NCBI RefSeq assembly: GCF_017876815.1
Contig: NZ_JAGIOS010000002.1
Span: 480,001-512,000 of the forward strand
Reading direction: 5' to 3'
Source of the DNA: Sinorhizobium meliloti
Lineage (GTDB): Bacteria; Pseudomonadota; Alphaproteobacteria; Rhizobiales; Rhizobiaceae
DNA length: 32,000 bases
This document shows, in pieces, positions 5,857 to 15,078 of this stretch; within the stretch, counting starts at the first letter, position 1, and each line of letters opens with the position of its first letter. Made by a program: the position numbers and the translations under genes. The notes below the pieces were generated by a model. That model had not been told where the DNA came from and did no database searches. It saw nothing but the letters and a program-made list of their open reading frames with translations.

Positions 5857-5881
5857 AACGGCGCGACCGTCCATTTGTTCC
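5857..5881 (-). promoter_or_regulatory. EcfG-type (general stress ECF sigma) promoter, perfect GGAAC-N16-CGTT
   Basis: The minus strand reads GGAAC AAATGGACGGTCGCGC CGTT. The -10 element ends 43 nt upstream of the DUF2934 ATG (5814). Confidence 0.7.
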
Positions 5882-6173: not shown

Positions 6174-6199
6174 GGAACCCTTTGGGTCGATCGCGGGTT
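6174..6199 (+). promoter_or_regulatory. EcfG-like promoter, GGAAC-N17-GGTT
   Basis: GGAAC CCTTTGGGTCGATCGCG GGTT, 41 nt upstream of ATG 6240. It is divergent from the 6119-6143 motif. Confidence 0.45.
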
Positions 6200-6239: not shown

Positions 6240-6983
6240 ATGCCCAGACATCCGGACTATGGCAGATACGATCCCTACGGCCGTCGCGATTGGGCCCGCC
6301 GCGACTGGGAGAACGAGCGCCACCGCGACCCTTACAACTATGGATCCGAGCGCCGCGGTCGGGCGCGCAGCCGCTTCGATGAGGATGTCGAGCCGCGTGG
6401 CGCCGACTACGAGAGCTCGATGTCGTGGCCGACCGGGAGCTACCGCGGCGGCGAAAGCGAACGCGAACGCTGGAACGACGACGACTACGATCGCAGGGGC
6501 CGCGAGCGTTATTTCAGGGATTATCACGGGCCCGGTTATGGCTATCGCGGCGAGGGCCGTTACCGCGGTTATGGAGGTTACGGCGAAACACGCGATTATC
6601 GCCGCGACCGCGATTTTCTCGACCGCGCCAGCGACGAGGTCGCTTCCTGGTTCGGTGACGAAGATGCCGAGCGCAGACGGGAGATGGACCGGCACCGGGG
6701 CAAGGGTCCGAAAGGCTACAGGCGCACCGACGGCCGCATCCAGGAAGATGTCAGCGACCGCCTGAGCGACGACGGCGCTCTCGACGCCTCCAACATCGAA
6801 GTGAGCGTGACGAACGGCGAAGTACAGCTCCACGGGTCGGTGAGCTCGAAATGGGCGAAACGCCGCGCCGAGGACTGTGCCGAAAACGTATCCGGGGTCA
6901 CGAATGTACAAAACAATCTGCGCATAGAGACGGCGGATACCGGCACTGTCCAGCAGAACCCGAACCTCACCGATCTTAGTTGA
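6240..6983 (+). CDS. SWFGD/BON domain protein with a disordered R/D/Y/G-rich N-terminal half (hydrophilin-like)
   Basis: ATG 6240 is preceded by AGGAGAGAG. The SWFGDEDAERRR motif is followed by KGPKGYRRTDGRIQEDV and a C-terminal BON-like segment (IEVSVTNGEVQLHGSVSSKWAKRRAEDCAENVSGVTNVQNNL). The track ORF start (6012) is upstream of the promoter motif and is unlikely. Confidence 0.8.
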   Translation: MPRHPDYGRYDPYGRRDWARRDWENERHRDPYNYGSERRGRARSRFDEDVEPRGADYESSMSWPTGSYRGGESERERWNDDDYDRRGRERYFRDYHGPGYGYRGEGRYRGYGGYGETRDYRRDRDFLDRASDEVASWFGDEDAERRREMDRHRGKGPKGYRRTDGRIQEDVSDRLSDDGALDASNIEVSVTNGEVQLHGSVSSKWAKRRAEDCAENVSGVTNVQNNLRIETADTGTVQQNPNLTDLS

Positions 6984-7152: not shown

Positions 7153-7256
7153 CGTCACAGGGATCCAGCCAGACCAAGTCCTTGGGCTGAAACAACGCTT
7201 CCCGCGCCGCAGACGCGGCGCTGCTCTCATCTCTGTGACAAGCACAGAGATGAGAG
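7153..7256. repeat. RIME/REP-like mosaic of three palindromic hairpins between convergent genes
   Basis: ATCCCTGTG-ctcgt-CACAGGGAT (7153-7175), GCGCCGC-agac-GCGGCGC (7204-7221) and CTCTCATCTCTGTG-acaag-CACAGAGATGAGAG (7224-7256). The CCCTGTG..CACAGGGAT type palindrome is familiar from rhizobial intergenic mosaic elements, from memory and not verified. Confidence 0.55.
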
Positions 7257-7361
7257 CGAGGAGAAATTGCGCCCGGCTACCTTGTCCGCACCGCCCTACG
7301 CGTCGACAAAAGCAATCATCTTGAAGCAGCCGTCAAAACTCGAGATGAATCTCAACAGGCC

Positions 7362-8504
7362 TTAGCTGGAAGCTCGCCGCTCTTCTGCGACCGATTTTGC
7401 CTGCCGCGCCCTGGAGCGCGCCGAGCGCTGAAGAAAGCTCAGCAAGCGCTGTTCCTCCACACGCAGTTCGCTGTCCAAGCGCCCGCGCGCCTGAAGCTGC
7501 CGTGCCGAGATCGAGGCCGACTTGTCGGCGAGAGCGAGCACATCGGGATGAATGTAGCTGCTCCGGCTGATGGCGGGGGTGTTGTGAAGAACGGACGCAG
7601 CCGCTTCGCTCATCTGTTTGATCGTCGGCCACTCGCCCTGTTCGATCGAAGTCCGGGCGGCCGTGAAAGCCGCGAGAGTGCCGCCCCAGGTCCGGAATGT
7701 CTTTGCAGAAACCGCTGTTCCGGCCACATCTGAAAGGTACCGGTTGAGCCGCCCGGAATCGACCGGCCGCAGGACGTCGTTTTCATCCTTCCAAACGAAA
7801 AGCTGTCTGCCCGGCAGATCCGCGATCTCTTCGAGCAACTGCTGCAATTTGGGGCGGCGGAGCAGGCGCTGGACGCGCTTGCCGCCCTTGCCGATGAATT
7901 TCAGCTCTATGAAGCCATCGCCCAGCCTGAGATGCCGCTTCAGCAGCGTCGTGGCACCATAGCTCCCATTGGCCTGCACGTAAGCCTGGTTGCCGGTGCG
8001 CAGATGGGCTTCGTCCAGCAGGGCCACCAGCGCAGCGAGCACGGTTTGCATGTTTTCCACGTCGCCCTGCATGTGGCGCCGTATGGTGCGGCGTATCTTG
8101 GGCAATGCCTTGCCGAATTCCACCAGTTGCGCGAATTTGTCGGCGCTCCTGAGAGCCTGCCACTCGCTGTGATAGCGGTACTGTTTTCGTCCGCGCGCAT
8201 CGTAGCCCGTAGCCTGCAGATGCCCCCGTTCTTCGAGGCAGATCCAGACGTTGTCATAGGCAGGCGGCAGGCCCAGCGCCGCTATGCGGCTTTTGATCAA
8301 CGGATCGGTAACGATCGAGCCGTCCGGCATTCGGTAGACAAACCCCTTGCCACGCCTTTGCCGCCGGATGCCCGGTTCGCTGTCGCTGACATAGACGAGC
8401 CCGGTTTCCTCGGGCACGTGACCGGCCGCCGCCAGGTTCCGCGGACCATCCGCGATCACGCAAGGCGGACATTCGAGCACGTCGACCGACGTTGCTCTAG
8501 CCAT
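7362..8504 (-). CDS. Bacterial (poxvirus-like) type IB DNA topoisomerase
   Basis: Start taken at ATG 8504-8502 (MARATSV...), with GGAGGGAGG just upstream. Family-typical GLVYVSDSEPGIRRQRRGKGFVY, HLQATGYDARGRKQYRYH, KFIGKGGKRV, SAKTFRTWGGT and a C-terminal catalytic-Tyr context SRSSYIHPDV. The start overlaps the glgX stop by 8 nt. Confidence 0.85.
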   Translation of the reverse strand: MARATSVDVLECPPCVIADGPRNLAAAGHVPEETGLVYVSDSEPGIRRQRRGKGFVYRMPDGSIVTDPLIKSRIAALGLPPAYDNVWICLEERGHLQATGYDARGRKQYRYHSEWQALRSADKFAQLVEFGKALPKIRRTIRRHMQGDVENMQTVLAALVALLDEAHLRTGNQAYVQANGSYGATTLLKRHLRLGDGFIELKFIGKGGKRVQRLLRRPKLQQLLEEIADLPGRQLFVWKDENDVLRPVDSGRLNRYLSDVAGTAVSAKTFRTWGGTLAAFTAARTSIEQGEWPTIKQMSEAAASVLHNTPAISRSSYIHPDVLALADKSASISARQLQARGRLDSELRVEEQRLLSFLQRSARSRARQAKSVAEERRASS

Positions 8505-10593
8505 TGCCTCCCTCCTGCGGCACGAAGGCGACGACGCTCTGCGCCGGGATAGTGTTGCGATCCGCGCTGGCGCGCATGCCGAACGGTTCGTCGGCTGCCG
8601 TGTCGAGCACGCGTAGCCAGCGCCTGCTTCCATTTCCGTGGGGCAGGGCTATCTCGCAATCACCGCCGGCATTGAGCACGAGGACGATCTCGCCGGCCGG
8701 CGGAGCTTCGACCTGCCCGACACGGCAGATATAGGCGCAGATCAGGCGGAGCTCAGCGTCGTGCCAGGCGTCCTCGTCCATCGGGTTGCCATCCGCCTTG
8801 TACCAGGCGATTTCGACTCGTCCATTGTCGTCGGGCTCTCCGTCGAGGAATCGTTCCTGCCGCAGGACAGGATGGTCCTTGCGGAAGGCGAGGAGCTTTC
8901 GGCAGAAATCCACGAAGCCATCGTCCGCCCCGCTCCAATCGAGCCAACCGATCTCGTTATCCTGGCAATAGGCGTTGTTGTTGCCCTGCTGGCTGTTTCC
9001 CAGCTCGTCGCCGCCGAGCACCATCGGCACGCCCTGGCTGATCATCAGGGTGGCGAGCATGGCCGCCCGCCGTCGCTTGCGGGCCTCGATGATCTCTCCG
9101 TTGTCGGTTGGGCCTTCGGCGCCCATGTTGTCGGAATGATTGTCGGAGTGACCGTCCCGGTTCTCCTCGCCGTTCGCCTCGTTGTGCTTTTCGCCGTACG
9201 AGACCGTGTCTGTCAGGGTGAAGCCGTCATGGGCGCTTACCAGGTTGATCGACGAGGTCGCGGCACGATCCGAATGCCTGAACTGAACCGGCGAGCCGAG
9301 AATGCGCTCGGCAAGCACCGGAACCATGCCGCCATCTCCCTTCCAGAAGCGCCGGACATCGTCGCGGAACCGGTCGTTCCATTCGCGGAACGGCGGCGGG
9401 AAACCGCCGAGCTGATAGCCGCCCTCGCCGACGTCCCAGGGTTCGGCGATCAGCTTCACACCCGCCAGAATCGGATCCTGCCGGATCGCGTCGAAAAAGC
9501 CGCCTTCGCGATCGAACTCCATGTATTCGCGGCCGAGCGTGCTTGCGAGATCGAAGCGGAAGCCGTCGATATGCATCACGCCCACCCAGTAACGCAGGCT
9601 GTCGAAGACCATGCGCAGCACCAGGGGATGGGCAACATTGAGCGTGTTGCCGGTGCCCGTCGTGTCGTAGGTGTGGCGCGGCTTGTCCGGCGACTGGCGG
9701 TAATAGCTGAAATTGTCGAGCCCGCGGAAGCTCAAGGTCGGGCCGCGTTCCGAACCCTCGGCCGTATGGTTGTAGACGACATCCATCAGAACTTCGATGC
9801 CGGCGGAATGAAACCGCTTCACCATCGTCTTGAATTCGGTAAAGCGGTCGCCCTTGAGATAGCGCTCGTGGGGAGCGAAGAATCCGAGCGTCTGATATCC
9901 CCAATAATTTCTGAGGTTCCGCTCCACCAGGTAGCGGTCGTCGAGGAAATACTGCACCGGCATCAATTCGATCGCCGAAACGCCGAGCTTCGTCAAGTGC
10001 TCGATGATCGGATCGCTCGCCATGCCGAGAAACGTGCCACGCAGCTCGTCCGGCACGCCGGGATGCGTCATGGTCATGCCGCGGACATGCGCCTCGTAGA
10101 TGATCGTTTCGGTCCAGGGACGGCGGATCGCTTCTTCGCCCGCCCAGTCGAAAGTCGGGTCCTGAACGACGCCCTTTACCATGAAGGGGGCGCTGTCGCG
10201 CTCGTCGAAGGAAAGATCGCCCTCAGGGCTGCCGATCGTATAGCCGAAGAGGGCATCGTCCCAGATGAGCTCACCCGCGACCAGCTTGGCGTAGGGGTCG
10301 AGCAGCAGCTTGTTCGGATTGAAGCGGTGACCATTGTGCGGGTCGTAAGGTCCGTGGGCGCGGTAGCCATAGAGGGTGCCGGGACCGATACCCTCGATGT
10401 AACCGGACCAGATATCGCCCTCGCGCTTCGGCAGAGGCATACGCGCCGTTTCCTCGCGTCCATCCTCGGAAAACAGGCAGAGTTCGATCTTCTCCGCATG
10501 CGCCGAGAAGACCGCAAAATGCGTCCCCTGCCCGGTGTATTCTGCACCGAGTTCAGGTTTCATGAAATCGAGTTCTGAAAAAGTCAGGTTCAT
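8497..10593 (-). CDS. glgX: Glycogen debranching enzyme GlgX (GH13 isoamylase type)
   Basis: 698 aa. LGAEYTGQGTHFAVFSAHAEKIELCLF, YGYRAHGPYDPHNGHRFNPNKLLLDPYAK, VYNHTAEG, DGFRFDLAS, EPWD and VSAHDGFTL are the GH13 conserved regions. GAGGG precedes ATG 10593. Confidence 0.92.
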   Translation of the reverse strand: MNLTFSELDFMKPELGAEYTGQGTHFAVFSAHAEKIELCLFSEDGREETARMPLPKREGDIWSGYIEGIGPGTLYGYRAHGPYDPHNGHRFNPNKLLLDPYAKLVAGELIWDDALFGYTIGSPEGDLSFDERDSAPFMVKGVVQDPTFDWAGEEAIRRPWTETIIYEAHVRGMTMTHPGVPDELRGTFLGMASDPIIEHLTKLGVSAIELMPVQYFLDDRYLVERNLRNYWGYQTLGFFAPHERYLKGDRFTEFKTMVKRFHSAGIEVLMDVVYNHTAEGSERGPTLSFRGLDNFSYYRQSPDKPRHTYDTTGTGNTLNVAHPLVLRMVFDSLRYWVGVMHIDGFRFDLASTLGREYMEFDREGGFFDAIRQDPILAGVKLIAEPWDVGEGGYQLGGFPPPFREWNDRFRDDVRRFWKGDGGMVPVLAERILGSPVQFRHSDRAATSSINLVSAHDGFTLTDTVSYGEKHNEANGEENRDGHSDNHSDNMGAEGPTDNGEIIEARKRRRAAMLATLMISQGVPMVLGGDELGNSQQGNNNAYCQDNEIGWLDWSGADDGFVDFCRKLLAFRKDHPVLRQERFLDGEPDDNGRVEIAWYKADGNPMDEDAWHDAELRLICAYICRVGQVEAPPAGEIVLVLNAGGDCEIALPHGNGSRRWLRVLDTAADEPFGMRASADRNTIPAQSVVAFVPQEGGNG

Positions 10594-10634
10594 TCAGTCG
10601 CGCCCTCTACCGCCTTGCCCGGCAGCTTTGATGC

Positions 10635-10659
10635 AACGCGACGGGCAGGCATTTGTTCC
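10635..10659 (-). promoter_or_regulatory. EcfG-type promoter, perfect GGAAC-N16-CGTT, upstream of glgX-topIB
   Basis: The minus strand reads GGAAC AAATGCCTGCCCGTCG CGTT. The -10 ends 42 nt upstream of the glgX ATG (10593). Confidence 0.7.
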
Positions 10660-10680: not shown

Positions 10681-10706
10681 GGAACTTTCCCAGCCTTCGG
10701 CCAGTT
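10681..10706 (+). promoter_or_regulatory. EcfG-like promoter, GGAAC-N17-AGTT, upstream of treZ
   Basis: GGAAC TTTCCCAGCCTTCGGCC AGTT, 30 nt upstream of ATG 10736. It is back-to-back with the glgX promoter motif. Confidence 0.45.
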
Positions 10707-10735
10707 CCTCGCCTTTCATCTCGAGGGACATATCG

Positions 10736-12541
10736 ATGCCGGCAGGTTCGACGCGTGCACATTTCAGAAACAGCTGGGGCGCGAATTTCATCGACGGCGA
10801 CACATGCCGGTTTCGTTTGTGGGCTCCCGACGAGCGGGGCGTCGATCTGGTTCTCGGCGGCGCCGCGCATAAGATGCAGTCGCTCGACGGCGGCTGGTTC
10901 GAAATCACGCTCGCGGCGAAGGCGGGAGAGCGCTATTGCTTCCGCCTTGCCGACGGCACCAAGGTGGCCGATCCCGCCTCCTCGGCACAGGAGCGGGAAG
11001 CGTCGGGTACTTCGATCGTCGTCGATCACGCCGCCTATGAATGGCAGGCTTTCTCCTGGCGCGGCAGGCCCTGGGAGGAGGCGGTCATTTCGGAGTTGCA
11101 TGTCGGCTGCTTCACGCCGGAGGGCACCTTCCGCGCTGCAATCGAGCGCTTGCCGCATCTGGCAGAGGCCGGAATCACTGCGATCGAGATCATGCCCGTC
11201 GCGCAATTCCCCGGTGTGCGGGGCTGGGGCTACGACGGCGTGCTGCACTATGCTCCGCACAATGCCTACGGGAAGCCGGATGACCTGAAGGCGCTCGTGG
11301 ATGCGGCCCATTCGCTGGGTCTGACGGTCCTGCTCGATGTCGTTTACAACCACTTCGGCCCGGAGGGGAATTATCTTTCGCGCTATGCGAGCCGCTTCTT
11401 CAACAAGGATCGCCCGACACCGTGGGGGGCGTCGATCGCCTTCGAGGAGGAAGCGGTCCGGCGCTATTTCATCGAGAACGCGCTCTACTGGCTCGGCCAT
11501 TTCCGTTTCGACGGATTGCGTCTCGATGCGACCGAACAGATCCGCGATACGACCAAGCCGCATTTTCTCGTCGCGCTGGAGCACGAGCTTCGGCACACGT
11601 TCGCCGAGCGGCAAATCCACCTGGTGCTGGAAGACGCTCACCGCCGCAGAAGCCTTCTGCAGCGCGACGCGAGCGGCGCGCGCATGCTTTTCGATGCGGC
11701 ATGGAACGACGATCTTCACAATGCCCTCCACGTCGTGGCGACCGGCGAAACCAAGGGCCACTATCGCCTTTTCGCGGACGAGCCCTGGGGCAAGATCCGC
11801 AACGCGCTGACCGAAGGCTTCGCCGTGCCGGCAAAGGAGGACAATTTCTCTCCTGAGGGGAGCCGAGCCCGCGTGCCGCCGCAAGGCCGCGTGAATTTCC
11901 TGCAGAACCACGACCAGATCGGCAACCGCGCCTTCGGCGAACGTCTCGCCTCGCTCCTCCAGGAGGACAGCCTGCGCGTGTTGGCGGCCATGCACATGCT
12001 GACGCCGCAAATCCCTCTCCTGTTCATGGGTGAAGAATACGGCGAGACGCAGCCCTTCTTTTTCTTCTCCGACTACCAGGGGGAAATAGCCGAGGCTATC
12101 CGGCTGGGACGCCGGGACGAAGCCGAAAATTTCGGCGGCCTTCCAGAGGGCAAGACGATGGATGATCTGCCCGATCCGCTCGACCCGGACGTCTTTGCCG
12201 GTTCGAAGCTACGTTGGAACCGCGCGACAAGCCCTGCCGGCGAGCGGCATCTTGCCTATATGCGCGACCTCGCCGGGATAAGGCAGCGGCACATCGTACC
12301 GCTGATCGCCGGCACCGCCGTACCGGATGGCCGTGCATACGAGACCAAGGACGGCATCATCGCTGTCGACTGGCAGTTCGGGGAGGCTTGCCTGGAATTG
12401 CGCGTCAATCTTTTGCACGAGACACACGCCGTACCCGCAATACGCGGTCAGCCGATCTTCGCGAGCGAAACGTCCGGTGTCGAGACCGTCTACGGCAGCG
12501 AGTTGGCCGGCCCTGGCATCGTCGTCGCCATTGCACGGTGA
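10736..12541 (+). CDS. treZ: Malto-oligosyltrehalose trehalohydrolase TreZ (GH13)
   Basis: ATG 10736 is preceded by GAGGGA. HFRNSWGANFIDGDTCRFRLWAP is a typical TreZ N-terminus. Also VYNHFGPEGNYL, DGLRLDATEQI, VLEDA and NHDQIGNRAFGERL. Confidence 0.9.
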   Translation: MPAGSTRAHFRNSWGANFIDGDTCRFRLWAPDERGVDLVLGGAAHKMQSLDGGWFEITLAAKAGERYCFRLADGTKVADPASSAQEREASGTSIVVDHAAYEWQAFSWRGRPWEEAVISELHVGCFTPEGTFRAAIERLPHLAEAGITAIEIMPVAQFPGVRGWGYDGVLHYAPHNAYGKPDDLKALVDAAHSLGLTVLLDVVYNHFGPEGNYLSRYASRFFNKDRPTPWGASIAFEEEAVRRYFIENALYWLGHFRFDGLRLDATEQIRDTTKPHFLVALEHELRHTFAERQIHLVLEDAHRRRSLLQRDASGARMLFDAAWNDDLHNALHVVATGETKGHYRLFADEPWGKIRNALTEGFAVPAKEDNFSPEGSRARVPPQGRVNFLQNHDQIGNRAFGERLASLLQEDSLRVLAAMHMLTPQIPLLFMGEEYGETQPFFFFSDYQGEIAEAIRLGRRDEAENFGGLPEGKTMDDLPDPLDPDVFAGSKLRWNRATSPAGERHLAYMRDLAGIRQRHIVPLIAGTAVPDGRAYETKDGIIAVDWQFGEACLELRVNLLHETHAVPAIRGQPIFASETSGVETVYGSELAGPGIVVAIAR

Positions 12542-12560: not shown

Positions 12561-12585
12561 GGAACATGCCCTGAGCCTCACGGTT
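12561..12585 (+). promoter_or_regulatory. EcfG-like promoter, GGAAC-N16-GGTT, upstream of the UdgX-like gene
   Basis: GGAAC ATGCCCTGAGCCTCAC GGTT in the 86-nt treZ-udgX gap, 43 nt upstream of ATG 12628. Confidence 0.5.
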
Positions 12586-12627: not shown

Positions 12628-13269
12628 ATGCCGAAACAGCTTGCGAACCTTGGCCCGGCCCTTGCCGGCGAACACGCCGAGGCAACGACGATTGCCTCTC
12701 TGCGGCGGCAGGCGGAGGGGTGCGAGCGCTGCGACCTCTACAAGAACGCTACGCAACTGGTCTTCGGCGAGGGTCCGGTCGACGCCCGTGTCGTGCTCGT
12801 CGGCGAACAGCCCGGCGACCGCGAGGACCTTGCCGGGCGCCCGTTCGTCGGACCCGCCGGGCGCATCCTGGACGAGTGCCTGCACGAAGCCGGCATCGAC
12901 CGGTCGGAATGCTATCTCACCAATGCCGTTAAACACTTCAAATTCGAACAGCGCGGCAAGCGCCGAATGCATTCGCGGCCGAACGCCGGTGAGATTCAGG
13001 CCTGCGCCTGGTGGCTCGGCGCCGAACTCGATGAGCTCCGCCCCGAAATCGTCGTCGCGCTCGGGGCAACGGCGCTGATGTCCCTGCTCGGGCGAAGCGT
13101 GGGTGTCACCAGGAACCGCGGCCAGCTTCTGACGGCCCCCGGGGGCTTCTCCGTGCTCGTGACCATCCACCCCTCCTATCTTCTGAGAATCCGAGGCCGA
13201 TCCGACCCCGAAGCGGAACGCGCCCGGTTTGTCGACGATCTCGCTAAGGTGGCGACTCGCATCGGTTGA
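12628..13269 (+). CDS. udgX: Family-4-related uracil-DNA glycosylase of the UdgX type (GEQPG motif plus KRRMH loop)
   Basis: ATG 12628 is preceded by GAGGAA. Fe-S cysteines are present (CERCDL, ECYLTN, QACAW). Motif A is LVGEQPGDRED..GRPFVGPAG and motif B is IHPSYLLR. The insertion NAVKHFKFEQRGKRRMHSRP corresponds to the KRRIH loop that defines M. smegmatis UdgX. Confidence 0.8.
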   Translation: MPKQLANLGPALAGEHAEATTIASLRRQAEGCERCDLYKNATQLVFGEGPVDARVVLVGEQPGDREDLAGRPFVGPAGRILDECLHEAGIDRSECYLTNAVKHFKFEQRGKRRMHSRPNAGEIQACAWWLGAELDELRPEIVVALGATALMSLLGRSVGVTRNRGQLLTAPGGFSVLVTIHPSYLLRIRGRSDPEAERARFVDDLAKVATRIG

Positions 13270-14987: not shown

Positions 14988-15012
14988 AACGGCGGCCGTC
15001 GCGGGAAGTTCC
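14988..15012 (-). promoter_or_regulatory. EcfG-type promoter, perfect GGAAC-N16-CGTT
   Basis: The minus strand reads GGAAC TTCCCGCGACGGCCGC CGTT, 27 nt upstream of ATG 14961. Confidence 0.65.
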
Positions 15013-15053: not shown

Positions 15054-15078
15054 GGAACATAGACGTCGCTTCCGAGTT
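15054..15078 (+). promoter_or_regulatory. EcfG-like promoter, GGAAC-N16-AGTT
   Basis: GGAAC ATAGACGTCGCTTCCG AGTT, 25 nt upstream of ATG 15103 and 41 nt from the divergent 14988-15012 motif. Confidence 0.5.

Follow-up and report, generated by a model that had tools for sequence, protein, structure and literature searches.

Introduction

The closest described relatives of the enzyme considered here are DraTopIB of Deinococcus radiodurans (2f4q/3m4a) and PAT of Pseudomonas aeruginosa, poxvirus-like bacterial type IB topoisomerases of similar size, which have in common with it the Top1B_N_bact plus Topoisom_I architecture and the same Arg-Lys-Arg-Asn-Tyr catalytic constellation. PAT needs no ATP to relax DNA (PMC2666729). 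In the searchable literature we found no agreed cellular role for the biochemically characterized enzymes of this type, and no counterpart, for those of Deinococcus and Pseudomonas, of regulation by a general stress sigma factor. The subject of the present study is topIB of Sinorhizobium meliloti (SMb21445 in strain 1021), which is located on the megaplasmid pSymB behind the debranching enzyme gene glgX2 (SMb21446), in a stretch of 32 000 nucleotides (contig NZ_JAGIOS010000002.1, positions 480,001 to 512,000). This whole stretch is hereafter called the window, and coordinates are those of the window unless stated otherwise.

A second term of comparison is the regulon of RpoE2, the sigma-EcfG factor of S. 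meliloti. RpoE2 is known to control the non-homologous end joining (NHEJ) genes ku3-ku4 and ligD4, whose products are active in stationary phase and under heat (Dupuy, 2019; PMC6379672). Like these genes, topIB is a DNA-maintenance gene under the general stress sigma factor, the connection between TopIB and NHEJ (ku3-ku4/ligD4) being one of co-regulation and neighbourhood. In Sphingomonas melonis Fr1, a 'Topoisomerase IB' gene with its own motif was reported to be EcfG-dependent (log2 fold change -3.5), and so was a GlgX-containing trehalose cluster, which is found at a separate locus (Gottschlich, 2019; PMC6599016). No discussion of TopIB as a conserved member of the general stress regulon was found in the searchable literature, and the papers on R. 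etli EcfG and ppGpp and on the extracytoplasmic function (ECF) sigma factors of S. meliloti (PMC6180224) mention neither a topoisomerase nor glgX.

Compared with these systems, the glgX2-topIB locus shares with the RpoE2/EcfG regulon (PMC3616915, PMC6599016) a canonical GGAAC-N16-CGTT promoter, a mapped transcription start site (TSS) and induction by RpoE2. Unlike the usual EcfG-controlled topIB, however, the gene of S. meliloti and of about ten relatives has no promoter of its own and uses that of glgX2. As in the TreX-TreY-TreZ pathway, glgX2 encodes an isoamylase-type enzyme and stands head-to-head with treZ, both genes being driven by RpoE2, but the second gene of the glgX2 unit is a topoisomerase gene rather than treY or treZ. 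Finally, S. meliloti TopIB differs from DraTopIB and PAT by an additional N-terminus of ~30 residues, created where its gene overlaps glgX2.

Results and discussion

The glgX2-topIB unit and its RpoE2 promoter

Taken together, the data presented below make it quite probable that glgX2 and topIB form a two-gene operon transcribed from one RpoE2 promoter (10635-10659), in which the link to glgX is a promoter piggy-back, while the conserved feature is the control of topIB by EcfG. It should be noted that RpoE2 control of both SMb21446 and SMb21445 is already known from public tables of promoters, starts and induction ratios. The finding that topIB rides on the stress promoter of glgX2 agrees with these data and is implicit in them, although no publication remarking on it was found in the searchable literature. 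The S. meliloti locus itself consequently adds little that is new.

The promoter is an exact GGAAC-N16-CGTT motif on the minus strand (10635-10659, GGAACAAATGCCTGCCCGTCGCGTT), 41 nt upstream of the glgX2 ATG at 10593. In their study of strain 1021, Schlüter et al. (2013; PMC3616915) assigned the sequence GGAACAA-ATGCCTGCCCGTC-GCGTTG to RpoE2 as the promoter of SMb21446 (their Table S19), and mapped the corresponding mRNA start, SMb_TSS3026, at Sm1021 position 1376743. Using the offset of 1366117 given by the coordinates of glgX2 and topIB in that study, this position would correspond, as a mapping between strains, to 10626 (minus strand) in the window, predicting a leader of 33 nt. The element thus shows the GGAAC -35 and (C)GTT -10 boxes at the spacing of 16-17 nt typical of EcfG promoters, and the mapped start, 8 nt past GCGTTG, falls within the expected 6-10 nt after the -10 box. 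The perfect stress promoter proposed at this position in a preliminary description of the window, made from the sequence alone, is therefore a real RpoE2 promoter with a mapped start.

Both genes respond to RpoE2 to nearly the same extent. In arrays comparing RpoE2 overexpression with the control, the log2 ratio was 3.81 for glgX2 and 3.48 for topIB, and the surrounding genes treZ (5.55), the BON gene (4.22) and the UdgX-like SMb21448 (3.26) were likewise induced (PMC3616915); the RpoE2 dependence of topIB in S. meliloti rests on these overexpression arrays. In the same study no TSS of the mTSS, lmTSS or pmTSS classes was recorded for SMb21445, but only four internal sense ends, none of them assigned to a promoter. 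The gene glgX2 is also cited, after Sauviac et al. (2007), as one that depends on RpoE2 under heat.

The two genes lie on the minus strand, glgX2 as first cistron (8497-10593), encoding a GH13 isoamylase-type debranching enzyme of 698 aa (identified by Pfam and named glgX by the PGAP annotation), and topIB as second cistron (7362-8504), encoding a poxvirus-like bacterial type IB topoisomerase of 380 aa (Pfam). They overlap by 8 nt at 8497-8504 (ATGGCTAG), a string containing both the topIB ATG (8504-8502) and the glgX2 TAG (8499-8497). The overlap, already reported in the preliminary description, was confirmed by direct reading of the minus strand and by CP140937.1, a pSymB record with 99.9% identity to the window, in which PGAP places the starts and stops of both genes at the same coordinates. 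As had also been noticed, the Shine-Dalgarno (SD) sequence of topIB, GGAGGGAGG (8507-8515, minus strand), is contained in the last codons of glgX2, whose frame ends with CAG GAG GGA GGC AAT GGC TAG (QEGGNG*); its first GGAGG stops 6 nt ahead of the ATG. The two genes therefore have the anatomy of an operon, being on the same strand with an 8-nt overlap and no intervening terminator or EcfG motif.

On this basis, transcription would proceed from the RpoE2 promoter at 10635-10659, starting near 10626, through glgX2 and topIB, and would probably end at a hairpin in the Sm-4 repeat downstream of topIB. TopIB would be translated from its own strong SD sequence, embedded in the last glgX2 codons. 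Ribosomes completing glgX2 would stop 5 nt after the topIB AUG, and coupling or re-initiation would be possible, though not required. As an outcome, the cell would produce an ATP-independent DNA swivelase solely while its general stress response is active (in stationary phase or under heat, salt or desiccation), alongside trehalose and glucan enzymes and other DNA-maintenance proteins controlled by RpoE2.

Arrangement of topIB in other bacteria

The arrangement of topIB and the occurrence of the EcfG motif were surveyed at 43 alphaproteobacterial and four beta- or gammaproteobacterial loci (25 from one-per-species genomes, 21 from plasmid or chromid records, and the window). In 39 of the 43 alphaproteobacterial loci topIB is located behind an EcfG-type promoter, strict in 33 cases and relaxed in six. 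None of the four beta- and gammaproteobacterial loci has the motif, as expected because those organisms lack EcfG.

The gene glgX lies directly upstream of topIB in 10 of the 43 loci, namely the window, Ensifer sp. USDA 6670, S. medicae, S. chiapasense, two Shinella strains, R. leguminosarum, R. phaseoli, a Rhizobiales isolate, and a metagenome-assembled genome (MAG) labelled Sphingomonas. All ten have a strict EcfG motif just ahead of glgX and none ahead of topIB. The junction between the two genes is always tight: at one extreme they overlap by 17 nt, and at the other they are 16 nt apart (with gaps of 9, 11 and 15-16 nt). The 8-nt overlap ATGGCTAG is found identical at two other loci (L002 and L003), and both S. 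medicae and Ensifer sp. USDA 6670 have kept the AGGAGGG of the topIB SD sequence. The juxtaposition, for which the preliminary description had suggested a survey, is therefore conserved, and is not a chance arrangement.

In S. chiapasense (L040, 3510-3526) glgX and topIB overlap by 17 nt (ATGGCCAGGAACGGTGA), and no SD sequence is recognizable. With an overlap of this kind and no SD sequence, S. chiapasense would be the best case for obligatory coupling. As for the MAG (L006, contig CAZZZI010000088.1, 'uncultured Sphingomonas sp.'), its glgX-topIB-GST genes are 65-75% identical to those of Rhizobiaceae, and the contig may be misbinned.

The most frequent arrangement, found in 21 of the 43 loci, is a solitary topIB with its own GGAAC-N15-18-xGTT motif within ~120 nt of the start. 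It is present in Ensifer aridi, S. shofinae, Ensifer sp. LCM 4579, 13 Neorhizobium, Rhizobium and Shinella loci (L011-L023), Rhizobium sp. RU36D, Limimaricola, Sulfitobacter, A. vitis and Rhizobium sp. BG4. The relaxed -10 element characterizes six further loci (two sphingomonads, Mesorhizobium, two Bradyrhizobium, and E. canadensis), and at two loci topIB follows another motif-bearing gene, an aldehyde dehydrogenase gene in Phaeobacter and a small open reading frame in Rhizobium CCGE531.

Across the 25 genome loci, 107 strict motifs were observed compared with ~12 in shuffled sequences, indicating that topIB lives in stress-gene islands. At that density, a motif would be found by chance within 100 nt and on the right strand in only ~1-2% of cases. 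What is invariant across the Alphaproteobacteria is therefore the control of topIB by EcfG, which is reached by at least three architectures; the routes would be a leaderless mRNA from its own promoter, the position of second cistron behind glgX, and a glgX-topIB-LigD-primase-polymerase string.

The first of these routes is predicted from the distance between the promoter and the start codon. In at least 15 species only 8-9 nt separate the end of the -10 element (xGTT, or GCTT in sphingomonads) from the topIB ATG, and an SD sequence is not visible (L011-L023, ~6890-6960; L030, 3952-3988; L034, 3914-3949; L038, 3914-3949; L044, 2955-2991). Since transcription from mapped RpoE2 promoters begins 8-10 nt past the -10 element, leaderless topIB mRNAs are predicted for these species. 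In S. meliloti, by contrast, topIB has a strong SD sequence inside glgX2.

In a neighbour-joining tree of TopIB, a quick distance tree without support values, all the glgX-linked copies fall in a single clade that comprises Sinorhizobium/Ensifer, the R. leguminosarum group and Shinella, and which also contains some Ensifer lineages devoid of the linkage. This fits a single origin of the glgX-topIB joining followed by later losses.

One might suppose that the operon exists because GlgX and TopIB act together, through a functional or a physical coupling. The adjacency is indeed kept across a Rhizobiaceae clade down to ~65% TopIB identity, and other cases of proximity to glucan or trehalose genes are found, i.e. 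the glgX paralogue and glgA-like gene of Neorhizobium and Rhizobium and the otsB and otsA genes of Sulfitobacter. However, Ensifer aridi, S. shofinae, S. saheli and Ensifer sp. LCM 4579 belong to the same clade and have no glgX directly upstream of topIB, and in three of them (E. aridi, S. shofinae and Ensifer sp. LCM 4579) topIB has its own EcfG motif. In addition, topIB is preceded by an aldehyde dehydrogenase gene in Phaeobacter, and topIB and glgX are at separate loci in S. melonis (PMC6599016). The neighbours of topIB are as often or more often DNA repair and maintenance genes (UdgX in Phaeobacter as well as in the window, LigD primase-polymerase, ligD-xth, and PolX/ligD/RNase HII), and the clustering of stress genes revealed by the density of EcfG motifs explains the proximity of glgX and topIB. 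A partnership of the two proteins is thus highly improbable, and we reject it on comparative grounds. Likewise, the functional tie to glycogen debranching suggested in the preliminary description is contradicted by the fact that most relatives have topIB alone with its own EcfG promoter, or behind another gene, and the 'fixed stoichiometry' of GlgX and TopIB was an overstatement, because co-transcription does not provide it. Rather than a biochemical partnership, the pairing with glgX would be a regulatory piggy-back arisen in one Rhizobiaceae clade.

Gene neighbourhoods of topIB

In R. leguminosarum pRL11 (L027, 1808-5859) and R. phaseoli (L039, 1308-5362), the gene that comes after glgX and topIB encodes a stand-alone LigD primase-polymerase (PF21686, E 7e-89). 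Its start overlaps the topIB stop by 4 nt, and a single EcfG motif, ahead of glgX, is available to the three-gene string. A search of all loci for a stand-alone LigD primase-polymerase downstream of topIB detected it in the R. leguminosarum/phaseoli group alone, apart from a partial match in Sphingobium; the glgX2-topIB unit of S. meliloti does not include it. The Sphingobium match (L030) is a segment resembling LigD primase-polymerase within a 'hypothetical' gene at 1855-2589.

Other neighbourhoods are more varied. In Bradyrhizobium sp. 195 (L043, 1-4026) topIB adjoins PolX, MOSC, ligD and RNase HII genes, and in the sphingomonads (Sphingomonas bisphenolicum, L044, 1-4104, and Sphingobium, L030, 1855-5101) it adjoins ligD, xth and a cupin gene. 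In Phaeobacter inhibens (L028, 1-8960) UdgX and radical-SAM repair genes form a pair transcribed divergently to the aldehyde dehydrogenase-topIB unit, and genes for a ligase-associated exonuclease and an ATP-dependent ligase are found downstream of topIB. In Sulfitobacter faviae (L029, 3080-7259) topIB is flanked by otsB and a GH15 gene, both divergent, with otsA downstream. In the Neorhizobium/Rhizobium clade (L011-L023; for example Rhizobium wenxiniae, L017, 5188-14210) topIB comes after an HWE histidine kinase gene; 2-3.5 kb downstream there is a glgX paralogue (~48% identity with GlgX2). A DJ-1/PfpI gene separates the two, a glgA-like starch synthase gene comes farther on, and EcfG motifs are scattered through the region.

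TopIB and GlgX2

TopIB matches the Pfam families Topoisom_I (PF01028, 6.2e-24) and Top1B_N_bact (PF21338, 1.5e-19), both above the gathering cut-off, and aligns with D. radiodurans TopIB (2f4q) with an E value of 1.6e-40. Its catalytic pentad is intact, R169, K206, R271, the Asn of LHNTPA and the Tyr of SSYIHP being aligned with R137, K174, R239, N280 and Y289 of 2f4q (the residue numbers of TopIB were counted by hand on the printed alignment). The ratio of non-synonymous to synonymous substitution rates (dN/dS) of topIB is 0.12-0.19 with respect to S. medicae and Ensifer sp. USDA 6670, indicating purifying selection. By analogy with the family, S. meliloti TopIB may be expected to relax supercoiled DNA independently of ATP, via a 3'-phosphotyrosyl intermediate.

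These data bear on a further explanation, namely that topIB is a horizontally acquired passenger of accessory replicons, with no role for the host and an incidental position behind glgX2. The distribution of TopIB in bacteria is patchy, many of the copies are on plasmids or chromids, and a pseudogenized or fragmentary copy is present in Bradyrhizobium plasmids, all of which would suit a passenger. On the other hand, a gene of this kind would hardly be expected to keep an intact catalytic pentad under purifying selection, nor an EcfG promoter through several arrangements in four orders of Alphaproteobacteria, with EcfG/RpoE2 dependence measured in two species (PMC6599016, PMC3616915). We consider it very unlikely that topIB is a mere passenger.

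GlgX2 contains the CBM_48 (PF02922, 2.4e-18) and Alpha-amylase (PF00128, 3.7e-13) domains of a debranching enzyme, and glgX2 has a dN/dS of 0.07. It does not belong to a single TreXYZ unit: treZ is adjacent yet divergent, and treY (SMb20574) lies elsewhere on pSymB. It is plausible that GlgX2 supplies TreY and TreZ; encoded head-to-head with treZ, the enzyme would probably feed the trehalose pathway.

Internal promoters and the glgX2-topIB junction

The operon reading would be incomplete if topIB had an additional, independent promoter, of the sigma70 or another type, inside glgX2. On the sense strand of glgX2 there are only four GGAAC pentamers (9920, 9751, 9380 and 8857), none followed by CGTT at the correct spacing, and none at all occurs on that strand within 8505-8856, i.e. 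in the last ~350 nt of the gene; this bears out the earlier remark that the motif is absent from the last ~200 nt. A relaxed GGAAC-N15-GCTT at 9751 was considered as an internal EcfG promoter and discarded, being located in conserved coding sequence and at chance level. A scan with the E. coli-type sigma70 consensus detected neither a promoter-like nor a terminator-like site on the sense strand of glgX2.

Several observations weigh against the operon reading and its generalization. A scan with the rhizobial consensus did return one weak sigma70-like candidate, CTGAGC-N16-CTATAT (~8756-8729, minus strand), which has a perfect rhizobial -10 box and precedes the topIB ATG by ~225 nt. In SMb21446, four seTSS (internal sense 5' ends) have been recorded (PMC3616915), one of which could truly start a topIB mRNA. 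The predicted fold of the junction RNA (8455-8580, minus strand) has a minimum free energy of -50.4 kcal/mol, compared with a mean of -51.8 kcal/mol for shuffled sequences (z = 0.35). A single mRNA that spans the junction at 8497-8504 is an inference. Moreover, no convincing motif was found at four of the 43 alphaproteobacterial loci (S. saheli, Martelella, E. adhaerens and Azospirillum). Lastly, the cellular role of TopIB, possibly that of relaxing or processing DNA when energy is scarce and cells do not grow, is proposed from the biochemistry of the family and from co-regulation.

An antisense TSS is also present inside glgX2, at ~9136 on the plus strand of the window (Sm1021 1375253, SMb_asRNA_2938, with RpoD/RpoH-like motifs; PMC3616915).

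Together with the seTSS and the rhizobial-consensus candidate, the antisense start, as a sign of a transcriptionally busy region, speaks for an internal promoter. However, internal sense ends make up about half of all the TSS in that catalogue, and its authors attribute them largely to mRNA fragments (PMC3616915). The 54 nt ahead of the topIB start are free of TSS contigs, because no mTSS was called there; no promoter is assigned to any SMb21445 TSS; the E. coli-type consensus scan gave no sigma70-like site on the sense strand; and the induction of glgX2 and topIB is nearly equal. We therefore regard an independent internal promoter as unlikely, and transcription from the glgX2 promoter as the preferred reading. 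The like induction of the two genes and the lack of an mTSS of its own agree with the proposal that topIB is expressed as a second cistron, but the statement that it is expressed only in this way was too strong, considering the four internal sense ends in glgX2.

As to translation, the junction RNA fold (8455-8580) shows no sign of SD sequestration or of structure-dependent coupling. Because it resembles that of shuffled sequences, it offers no structural argument for obligatory coupling, and the strong SD sequence of topIB may permit independent initiation. An obligatory translational coupling between glgX2 and topIB is therefore not indicated.

Significance

Beyond the S. meliloti locus, the survey provides a modest new lead, consisting of the generalization of EcfG control to topIB, the predicted leaderless mRNAs, and the glgX-topIB-LigD-primase-polymerase string of Rhizobium. 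TopIB emerges as a recurrent member of the general stress regulon, often found beside NHEJ, base-excision-repair and trehalose genes. It is about an even chance that TopIB is a conserved core member of the EcfG regulon, which different lineages have reached by different routes, and that it is an ATP-independent relaxing or repair enzyme of non-growing, desiccated or starved cells, working beside NHEJ and base-excision repair. If this were true, it would give the first defined physiological setting for a bacterial TopIB. Attention would accordingly shift towards survival of stationary phase, desiccation and DNA breaks, and away from glycogen metabolism.

Other features of the window

In strain 1021, the genes surrounding glgX2 and topIB are named SMb21447 (treZ), SMb21448 (UdgX-like) and SMb21444 (BON). 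The malto-oligosyltrehalose trehalohydrolase gene treZ (10736-12541, plus strand, from the annotation) has a divergent RpoE2 promoter at 10681-10706 (plus strand; motif scan and Table S19 of Schlüter et al., 2013, TSS3028), back-to-back with that of glgX2. The palindrome GGAAC...GTTCC at 10681-10708 is readable as a motif on either strand. Downstream of treZ, the gene for a UdgX-family uracil-DNA-binding protein (12628-13269, plus strand, from the annotation) has its own motif at 12561-12585, detected in the motif scan. Each divergent arm thus consists of a glucan or trehalose enzyme gene followed by a DNA enzyme gene, i.e. glgX2-topIB and treZ-UdgX-family gene.

Additional EcfG-type motifs are present ahead of a DUF2934 gene (5857-5881, minus strand), the BON-domain gene (6174-6199, plus strand), a gene for a hypothetical protein of 71 aa (14988-15012, minus strand) and a homologue of SMb21452 (15054-15078, plus strand). 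The whole window contains three strict GGAAC-N16-17-CGTT motifs and ten relaxed motifs, compared with 0.48 and 2.58, respectively, expected from shuffled sequences. The region from 5.8 to 15.1 kb is an RpoE2 island comprising the BON, DUF2934, treZ, UdgX and GST units, and several of its RpoE2-type motifs have been mapped (Schlüter et al., 2013; PMC3616915). An Rfam scan of the whole window at the gathering threshold gave no match.

Between the convergent topIB and BON genes lies a copy of the dispersed Sm-4 repeat (~7157-7303), which occurs 535 times across 67 Sinorhizobium replicons; in the SMb21444/SMb21445 intergenic region the repeat is on record as Repeat Sm-4, after del Val et al. (2007). 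An inverted-repeat search located within it a perfect 15-bp hairpin (7223-7257), a candidate bidirectional terminator, at which the topIB transcript would probably end. The same intergenic region differs from that of strain 1021 by a 26-bp indel.

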